Of a DNA stretch of 1,443 nt, positions 1 to 1,443 are shown piece after piece. The stretch lies in assembly GCF_003334355.1 (NCBI RefSeq), contig NZ_QOWP01000087.1. The stretch is one strand, 5' to 3'. The number at the start of each line of letters is the position of its first letter. The stretch's first letter is position 1. The notes beneath the pieces are model-generated. The model was given only the letters and a program-made list of their open reading frames with translations. It was not told the origin of the DNA and searched no databases. Origin of the DNA: Escherichia coli. Its GTDB lineage: Bacteria; Pseudomonadota; Gammaproteobacteria; Enterobacterales; Enterobacteriaceae. The position numbers were made by a program, and so were the translations under genes.

Positions 1-31
1 TGTACTGACCCCAAAAAGTTGGACAGTTAAA
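1..31. repeat. Terminal inverted repeat at the orfB-proximal end (IRR in the element's own orientation)
   Basis: TGTACTGACCCCAAAAAGTTGGACAGTTAAA; shares the terminal TGTACTG and internal GTTGGAC blocks with the opposite end. The inner boundary is approximate. Confidence 0.8.
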
Positions 32-878
32 CACGAGGCATATAGGTCTGATTCCGATATTCAATTGGAGTCAGACCTTTTAATTTCAGGCTAATTCTTC
101 TGCTGTTGTAGTATTCAATATATTCCGTAACAGCATCCTTCAGTTCGCTTATATTACTGAACTCATCAAGATAAAAACACTCCGACTTTAAGGTTCCAAA
201 GAAACACTCCACCACAGCATTATCCAGACAATTGCCTTTTCTGGACATGCTTTGTTTAATACCATGTTCTTTAAGGATATTTTGATATCTTCTCATACGA
301 TACTGCCATCCCTGGTCAGAGTGCAGAACAGGATGCTCGTGAGGATTAAGCTTTTTGAATGCCTGATCGAGCATATTCTCAACCATGTTCATCACTGGTC
401 TTTCCGAAAGGCTGTAAGAAATAACTTCGTTGTTGAAGAGATCTATTACTGGAGACAAATACAGCTTGCGCCCATTGACTGCAAATTCAGTAACATCGGT
501 AACCCACTTCTCGTTTGGCCGCGTAGCCTTGAAATCTCTTTGGAGAACATTAGGGGCGGTTTGCCCTACCTCTCCTCTGTAAGAGCGGTATCGCTTGACC
601 TTAATCGCTGCTTTAAGTGAGAGGGTTCCCATCAGGCGCTGAACAGCTTTATGGTTAATCTGTTTCCCTTCTCGATGAAGAGACAGCGTTACCCTACGGT
701 ATCCGTATCGGCCTCTATTCTCGTGATAAATCTCACTAATACGCTTTTTAACGTCCGCATACTTGTCAGGCTTGCTGAGAGCCTTTAGATGATAATAAAA
801 CGTACTGCGCGGTATCTCCGCAGCCCTGAGAAGCTCATCAAGAGGATAAAACTGCCTTAGCTCGTTGAGTACTTTCAC
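27..878 (-). CDS. insK: IS3-family transposase OrfB (InsK-like): DDE/RNase H-fold integrase catalytic domain, 283 aa if initiated independently at GTG
   Basis: ORF track 27..878 (-). The first codon is GTG (878..876), overlapping the orfA TGA stop as GTGA. DDE triad located by hand: D128 (GAT, 497..495, motif WVTDVTEF), D188 (GAC, 317..315, motif HSDQGWQY), E224 (GAG, 209..207, motif [17 protein letters not shown]); D-to-E spacing 35 residues. The stop lies 26 nt from the window's left end. Confidence 0.93.
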
Positions 879-1396
879 TTTTTCGTGGGATGAGCTAAGG
901 CTTTCAGCTTTTTTAGATACATAAGCCGCGTTTCAAGAAATCGAACTTGCCTTTCAAGATCCTCAATGCGTCGGTCTTTTGACAGCTCCAATGCTGATGC
1001 CGCTTTTTCTGGATCAACTGATATTGCAATGTTTCTTTTGGTGCCAATCTTGAGCGCGCGTAAACCAGCTTCTCCGCGCTCTTCATAGACCTTCAGCCAC
1101 CTGGCTACAGAACCACTACCAGCAAGCATAAAGTGAGCAGCAGCCTGATTAAGGGACATGTGCTGCTCGATCACAGCTTTCACGACCTTAATACGCAACT
1201 CTGGATCAGCACTAACGCCTTTAGGTTTGGGAATTAAACCTTTTTCTCCATGTTTTTCATAGAGGGCAACCCATGTCCTGACCTGGGTTCGGGGGACACC
1301 AAAACGTGCCGAGATGATCCTGTAACCATCATCAGTTGTGAAGTAGTGATTCACGACTTCAAGGCGCTTTTCAAAAGGGTATTTTGGCTTTGACAT
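27..1396 (-). CDS. insJK: Predicted InsJK (OrfAB) transframe fusion transposase, made by programmed -1 ribosomal frameshifting at 914..908; roughly 455 aa
   Basis: OrfA zero-frame codons CTA AAA AAG place the heptamer A AAA AAG at 914..908. After a -1 slip the reading continues GCT GAA AGC CTT AGC TCA TCC CAC GAA AAA GTG AAA GTA..., with no stop, straight into the orfB frame (checked by hand). The length is an estimate from coordinates, not a verified translation. Confidence 0.8.
854..901 (-). promoter_or_regulatory. Frameshift-stimulating mRNA stem-loop: perfect 10-bp stem, 28-nt loop holding the orfA stop and orfB GTG start
   Basis: Plus 854..863 GCCTTAGCTC is the exact reverse complement of plus 892..901 GAGCTAAGGC. 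On the mRNA the 5' arm begins 6 nt (CTGAAA) after the heptamer, a typical spacer for -1 frameshift stimulators. The loop (891..864) contains the GTGA overlap at 878..875. Confidence 0.8.
875..1396 (-). CDS. insJ: IS3-family transposase OrfA (InsJ-like): DNA-binding HTH protein with C-terminal leucine zipper, 173 aa
   Basis: ORF track 875..1396 (-); ATG at 1396..1394, TGA at 877..875. HTH-like segment [24 protein letters not shown] (aa 25-48, about nt 1324..1253). Leucine heptad L147/L154/L161 (about nt 967..896). Begins 47 nt inside the element's right end in window coordinates, as expected for IS3-family orfA. Confidence 0.93.
   Translation of the reverse strand: MSKPKYPFEKRLEVVNHYFTTDDGYRIISARFGVPRTQVRTWVALYEKHGEKGLIPKPKGVSADPELRIKVVKAVIEQHMSLNQAAAHFMLAGSGSVARWLKVYEERGEAGLRALKIGTKRNIAISVDPEKAASALELSKDRRIEDLERQVRFLETRLMYLKKLKALAHPTKK
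908..914 (-). promoter_or_regulatory. Slippery heptamer A AAA AAG (X XXY YYZ) for programmed -1 frameshifting
   Basis: Plus strand 908..914 = CTTTTTT, so the minus strand reads A AAA AAG in the orfA zero frame (L161-K162-K163). Lies 31 nt upstream of the orfA stop. Confidence 0.85.
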
Positions 1397-1425
1397 ATTA
1401 GGGGCTATTCCATTTCATCGTCCAA
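1397..1425 (-). promoter_or_regulatory. Candidate orfA promoter inside IRL: -35-like TTGGAC (1425..1420); no convincing -10 or Shine-Dalgarno found
   Basis: Minus-strand sequence upstream of the orfA ATG: ...GTTGGACGATGAAATGGAATAGCCCCTAAT-ATG. TTGGAC matches the sigma70 -35 consensus at 5/6. The only hexamer at 17-bp spacing (CCTAAT) abuts the ATG, and the best purine run (GGAAT) is a weak SD. This is inference; IS3-family promoters are typically weak and partly within IRL. Confidence 0.3.
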
Positions 1426-1443
1426 CAAAATGGGTGCAGTACA
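1413..1443. repeat. Terminal inverted repeat at the orfA-proximal end (IRL in the element's own orientation)
   Basis: Reverse complement of the 3' end reads TGTACTGCACCCATTTTGTTGGACGATGAAA. Against window 1..31 (TGTACTGACCCCAAAAAGTTGGACAGTTAAA) it matches 18/24 over the first 24 nt and 22/31 over 31 nt. Conserved blocks are TGTACTG (terminal) and GTTGGAC (18-24 from the tip). The inner boundary is approximate. Confidence 0.8.

Follow-up and report, generated by a model that had tools for sequence, protein, structure and literature searches.

The stretch of Escherichia coli DNA analysed here (1,443 nucleotides, referred to below as the window) carries an open reading frame for a 283-aa protein, OrfB, in which an initial annotation made from the sequence recognised the DD(35)E signature of IS3-family elements. 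The locus raises the question of whether the three acidic residues singled out in OrfB are those of a true catalytic triad and, if so, which protein encoded by the window acts as the transposase.

Identity and organisation of the element

Read as its reverse complement, the window matches IS150 of E. coli K-12 MG1655 at 1443 of 1443 bases (NC_000913.3, 3720633-3722075, annotated 'insertion sequence:IS150'; 100% identity over 1443 columns), and the window is thus one complete IS150 lying on the opposite strand. Open reading frames, ends and frameshift site are the same as those of the K-12 element (insJ/insK), with no difference between the two. Size and ends also agree with the description of the IS3 family and its IS150 group, in which elements of approximately 1.2-1.5 kb are bounded by imperfect inverted repeats, starting with 5'-TG and ending with CA-3'. 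The window measures 1443 bp and runs from TGTACTG... to ...CAGTACA on the coding strand, and its two terminal inverted repeats match at 22 of 31 positions, the outer 7 bases being identical. The features of the element are listed in Table 1.

Table 1. Features of the IS150 copy, in window coordinates
Feature	Position	Strand	Basis or remark
Complete insertion sequence IS150	1..1443	-	window ends = element ends
Left terminal inverted repeat (IRL)	1413..1443	-	begins 5'-TGTACTG on the coding strand
orfA (insJ/InsA), 173 aa	875..1396	-	ORF list; MG1655 insJ annotation
Slippery heptamer A_AAA_AAG, -1 frameshifting	908..914	-	phase X_XXY_YYZ in the orfA frame
Putative frameshift-stimulating stem-loop	854..901	-	RNA fold
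orfB (insK/InsB), 283 aa, nominal GTG start	27..878	-	ORF list; MG1655 insK annotation
HTH_21 'HTH-like' domain, OrfB 43-96	591..752	-	Pfam PF13276, E = 1.5e-16
Integrase core rve, OrfB 119-217	228..524	-	Pfam PF00665, E = 5e-29
First catalytic aspartate, D128 of OrfB = D301 of OrfAB	495..497	-	codon GAT
Second catalytic aspartate, D188 of OrfB = D361 of OrfAB	315..317	-	codon GAC
Catalytic glutamate, E224 of OrfB = E397 of OrfAB	207..209	-	codon GAG
Conserved lysine, K231 of OrfB = K404 of OrfAB	186..188	-	seven residues past E224
rve_2, OrfB 224-278, C-terminal part of the catalytic core	45..209	-	PF13333, E = 1.2e-21
Right terminal inverted repeat (IRR)	1..31	-	finishes ...CAGTACA-3' on the coding strand

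The end of orfA (1396..875) overlaps the beginning of orfB (878..27), with orfB in the -1 phase, an arrangement that is characteristic of the IS150 group. Upstream of its GTG codon the orfB frame stays open for 18 more codons, through the slippery heptamer to position 932 (878-932, minus strand), and the annotated start of the 283-aa InsB is for this reason only nominal. OrfA contains two tandem HTH_28 domains, as defined by Pfam (residues 10-60 and 68-116; window 1049-1369, minus strand), and makes up the DNA-binding N-terminus of the fusion transposase; the orfB product is the catalytic part. The rve match in OrfB contains D128 and D188, and E224 occupies position 1 of the rve_2 match and also lies inside a match to rve_3 (OrfB 205-271). 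In addition, OrfB scores 350.3 bits against the NCBIfam model NF033516 'IS3 family transposase', for which the cut-off is 160.

A scan of the window for promoters and terminators gave counts not above those obtained with shuffled sequence. Just inside the right end and antisense to orfB there is a terminator-like hairpin of 15 pairs, followed by TTTAATTT (window 44-78, plus strand, with a T-rich tail to 88). The hairpin could stop outside transcription from entering IS150, and one such site is the number expected of shuffled sequence.

Position and conservation of the catalytic residues

Translation of 878..27 on the minus strand places D128, D188 and E224 at the coordinates given for them in the initial annotation, and the three signature motifs quoted there are all present in OrfB: WVTDVTEF at residues 125-132, HSDQGWQY at 186-193 and a motif of the GNCxDNAxxExFFGTLK type at 215-231. 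D128 and D188 are separated by 59 residues, and D188 and E224 by 35. A D-to-E distance of 35 had been described as typical of retroviral-integrase-like DDE transposases, and it is also that of retroviral integrases. The IS150 group has been defined by a D(57-60)D(35)E motif together with an AnG frameshift window, and the motif is taken to include a lysine or arginine seven residues past the glutamate; the D(59)D(35)E arrangement of OrfB, with K231 at +7, falls within this definition. As judged from the profile scores (rve, E = 5e-29; rve_2, E = 1.2e-21; NF033516, 350 bits), the match of the triad is far beyond chance.

The Pfam rve profile had been put forward as the means of checking the triad, and it served for two residues of the three: the match covers both aspartates but ends before E224, so that family alignments, a profile alignment with HIV-1 integrase and a structure model were needed to place the glutamate. 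The failure of the proposed check to reach the third residue lends some substance to the suspicion that the triad had been picked by eye from motif-like strings and that the true catalytic residues lie elsewhere. Nevertheless, the three other lines of evidence, which are described below, converge on D128, D188 and E224, and the likelihood of such a misassignment is regarded as practically negligible.

Alignment of OrfB with IS3 InsF and IS2 InsD, both from MG1655, shows D128, D188, E224 and K231 in invariant columns. The IS2 residues that occupy the triad columns are D240, D306 and E342, in the contexts W-C-S-D, V-E-W-L-T-D and I-A-E. In the published IS2 triad, D240/D306/E342, W237 precedes D240 by three residues, V301 precedes D306 by five and A341 adjoins E342, and since the local contexts fit this description the aligned residues can be equated with the published ones. 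IS2 and IS150 agree in the D, D, E and K(+7) columns and in having 35 residues between D and E, and both have two ORFs arranged for frameshifting, although their OrfB proteins are only about 20% identical and the aspartates are separated by 65 residues in IS2 as opposed to 59 in IS150. According to the literature the elements also differ in their donor ends, with the right end only acting in IS2 and both ends able to act in IS150. IS3 InsF is approximately 32% identical to IS150 OrfB and has the same triad, K(+7) and surrounding motifs, whereas the OrfA of IS3 is considerably shorter, at about 100 aa (300-nt insE) compared with 173 aa and two HTH_28 domains in IS150. A tblastn search of plasmids with IS3 InsF as the query returned no match labelled IS911.

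More distant relatives show the same conservation. A scan of 1.84 billion representative proteins yielded 39,286 relatives of OrfB, and an alignment of 85 sequences was assembled from 82 near-full-length hits (22-54% identical to the query OrfB), the query itself, IS3 and IS2. In this alignment D128 and K231 are kept in 85 of 85 sequences and D188 and E224 in 84 of 85 each. Of 83 sequences, 82 have 35 residues between D and E, and all have 6 between E and K.

A phmmer search of PDB sequences with the single OrfB sequence gave no match. A profile of the 85 relatives does reach the deltaretroviral (STLV/HTLV) integrases in the PDB, and aligns the OrfB aspartates with the DITHF and TDNG motifs, although it covers the two aspartates only. 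The glutamate was for this reason anchored through an hhalign comparison with HIV-1 integrase, using a sequence identical to PDB 8w34 chain A. D128 was paired with D64, D188 with D116, E224 with E152 and K231 with K159, the last block being free of gaps, and the catalytic residues are thus not displaced by a profile alignment. Taken alone, the hhalign result is only modestly significant (probability 46%, E = 2e-4), and with this modest support the triad aligns with that of a solved integrase, as is expected of a member of the DDE transposase/retroviral integrase superfamily.

A confident AlphaFold model of OrfB built on the alignment (mean pLDDT 94.9, pTM 0.88) has the element order b1-b2-b3-a1-b4-a2/3-b5-a4 of the integrase-type RNase H-like fold, with strands at 124-127/130-134, 137-146, 151-158, 184-187 and 208-211 and helices at 163-174, 191-204 and 217-235. 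In the model D128 is at the end of beta1, D188 just past beta4 and E224 on alpha4, where K231 follows two turns further on. A Foldseek comparison with solved structures ranks TnsB, IstA and retroviral integrases highest (E from 7.5e-10 to 7e-7). The order of the fold is common to IS150 and the retroviral integrases (HIV-1, with D64/D116/E152 and K159; HTLV/STLV; RSV; PFV), as are the placement of triad and lysine and the 35-residue D-to-E spacing. However, sequence identity is only 12-22%, and IS150 has neither the HHCC zinc domain nor the SH3-like C-terminal domain of the retroviral enzymes. DNA is bound through helix-turn-helix domains in IS150, unlike in retroviral integrase, and the enzyme would be produced by frameshifting instead of by cleavage of a polyprotein.

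All three residues of the triad are present; they fall in the conserved catalytic columns of the alignments, and they are located in the fold where a triad is expected. The window is almost certainly a complete, unmutated IS150 (IS3 family, IS150 group), in which D128, D188 and E224 form the DD(35)E triad of an RNase H-like core of the retroviral integrase type. Transposase activity requires an intact triad, but an intact triad does not guarantee it.

Predicted frameshifting and a probable OrfAB fusion

The slippery heptamer of the window is followed after 6 nt by a perfect stem of 10 bp, in which GCCUUAGCUC (901..892) pairs with GAGCUAAGGC (863..854). Folding of the RNA of this region gives a minimum free energy of -22 kcal/mol (z = -2.64 against shuffles), and the 10-bp stem is present in both the minimum free energy and the centroid structures. 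The combination of an AnG slippery motif with a predicted downstream RNA structure is that of the IS150 group. No curated frameshift-element family was found in an Rfam scan of the window, whose sole match, to a microRNA family, was below threshold and due to chance. In later papers, the IS150 heptamer and its role are credited to Vogele et al. (1991), and frameshifting in IS150 is described in one of them, with reference to the same work, as highly efficient.

Ribosomes translating orfA would slip back by one base at A_AAA_AAG, ahead of the 10-bp stem-loop, to produce OrfAB. The product predicted from the -1 slip has 456 aa and a mass of 53 kDa, with its triad at D301/D361/E397, and would carry both helix-turn-helix domains of OrfA in front of the catalytic core. 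Against NF033516 the fusion scores 414.7 bits in a single stretch over positions 1-369 of 369, with OrfA alone covering 1-89 and OrfB alone 93-369. Many of the representative homologues, moreover, reach about 450 aa, and in these the part resembling OrfB begins near residue 170-200. In the original studies of IS150, about a third of ribosomes reportedly shift frame and InsAB was reportedly shown to be the transposase, and the synthesis of InsB reportedly also involves frameshifting.

The initial annotation took the intact triad as support for a competent transposase in OrfB. The triad is indeed intact, but the wording implied that the 283-aa protein made from its own GTG start is the enzyme, and that part of the claim most probably does not hold. 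OrfB does hold the entire catalytic core and HTH_21, and in ISSau2, a member of the IS150 group, purified OrfB has been reported to cut inverted repeats in vitro with an activity similar to that of OrfAB. However, OrfB is devoid of the two HTH_28 DNA-binding domains, only the fusion spans NF033516 from end to end, and both slippery heptamer and stem-loop are intact in the window. In the literature, too, the transposase of the IS150 and IS3 groups is identified as OrfAB, and OrfB of ISSau2 is described as an inhibitor of transposition. Very little credence is accordingly given to OrfB as the stand-alone transposase. Sequence evidence and secondary literature both point to the 456-aa OrfAB fusion, and not the 283-aa OrfB, as the most likely active enzyme.

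ISSau2, of Staphylococcus aureus, is described as having a D(60)D(35)E motif followed six residues later by a lysine, an A6G frameshift site and an OrfAB transposase, and differs from IS150 in its host, in its greater length (1660 bp) and in the sizes of OrfA (251 aa) and OrfB (297 aa). By comparison with this element, free OrfB (InsB) of IS150 might act by itself in catalysis or regulation, for example by processing intermediates or by inhibiting transposition in the manner of ISSau2 OrfB, although such a role is considered unlikely.

Transposition, spread and significance

By general knowledge of DDE enzymes, the three carboxylates would hold two Mg2+ ions. A water molecule activated by these ions would nick IS150 at its 3' end (...CA-3'), and the resulting 3'-OH would be activated in turn for strand transfer to a new phosphodiester bond. 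By analogy with K159 of HIV-1 integrase, K231, which shares its helix with the glutamate, may contact the terminal DNA. The literature on the IS3 family suggests that transposition would proceed by a copy-out/paste-in route with a figure-of-eight and a circular intermediate. A two-step circle pathway has been described for IS150, and a later paper attributes the figure-of-eight/circular copy-out/paste-in mechanism of IS150 to Haas and Rak (2002).

A 3-4 bp target-site duplication, expected of the group, was not found at the identical IS150 copy of MG1655, the one insertion site inspected for it, where the flanks read GTA and AAC and form no 3-bp direct repeat. The absence of the repeat suggests that the insertion was atypical or that the site was rearranged later; it concerns the history of the MG1655 insertion site and not the sequence of IS150 itself. 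The missing repeat could nevertheless be read as the sign of a domesticated or silent relic, which no longer transposes in this genome and whose triad is intact only because the insertion was recent. Such a reading is at odds with inverted repeats, orfA, heptamer, stem and orfB that are all intact. It also has to contend with the spread of the element: of the 5426 complete E. coli genomes searched by megablast, 2865 have matches, annotated as 'IS3-like element IS150 family transposase', and sequence at least 99% identical to the window occurs in 3017 E. coli records, chromosomes and plasmids included, with up to 14 places per genome. So wide a distribution is what a still mobile element would be expected to show, and high rates of IS150 transposition have been reported in lineages of E. 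coli B. A silent relic is therefore held to be highly unlikely, and a complete, unmutated IS150 remains the preferred reading.

Among the insertion sequences of the Lenski long-term experiment IS150 was the most active, rising from 5 to up to 40 copies without sequence change, and it dominated the structural mutations in REL4536 mutation-accumulation lines; this activity is documented for E. coli B, and the one REL606 copy compared with the window is cut by IS1. In E. coli B REL606 the IS150 beside hokE (NC_012967.1, approximately 588.5-590.5 kb) is interrupted by IS1A. It has lost window positions 150-382 and matches the window at 100% over the 1210 bases that are left. The lost stretch includes the codons for D188 and E224, and this copy must therefore be catalytically dead. 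An intact IS150 was sought in REL606, but pflB proved to be uninterrupted and another region inspected in that genome contained no IS150. IS1-interrupted copies of IS150 also head the megablast ranking of E. coli genomes.

In the two strains examined, IS150 lies between hokA/mokA and sokA (K-12) and just upstream of hokE (REL606), and an insertion hotspot for IS150 has been reported between trg and mokB in E. coli B. That IS150 adjoins hok loci in both strains may reflect a preference for hok/sok loci as targets, although this, too, is considered unlikely.

IS150 itself, the DD(35)E triad, the lysine at +7, the frameshift signal and the kinship with retroviral integrases are already known, and have been established features of the IS3 family for decades. 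Confirmation of the triad answers no open question, but two refinements emerge: the rve match falls short of E224, and the competent enzyme is most likely OrfAB. For the organism, the meaning goes little beyond correct annotation and is one of genome stability, given the standing of IS150 as the most active insertion sequence in the Lenski experiment: with its triad, frameshift signal and ends intact, this copy has everything needed to transpose.
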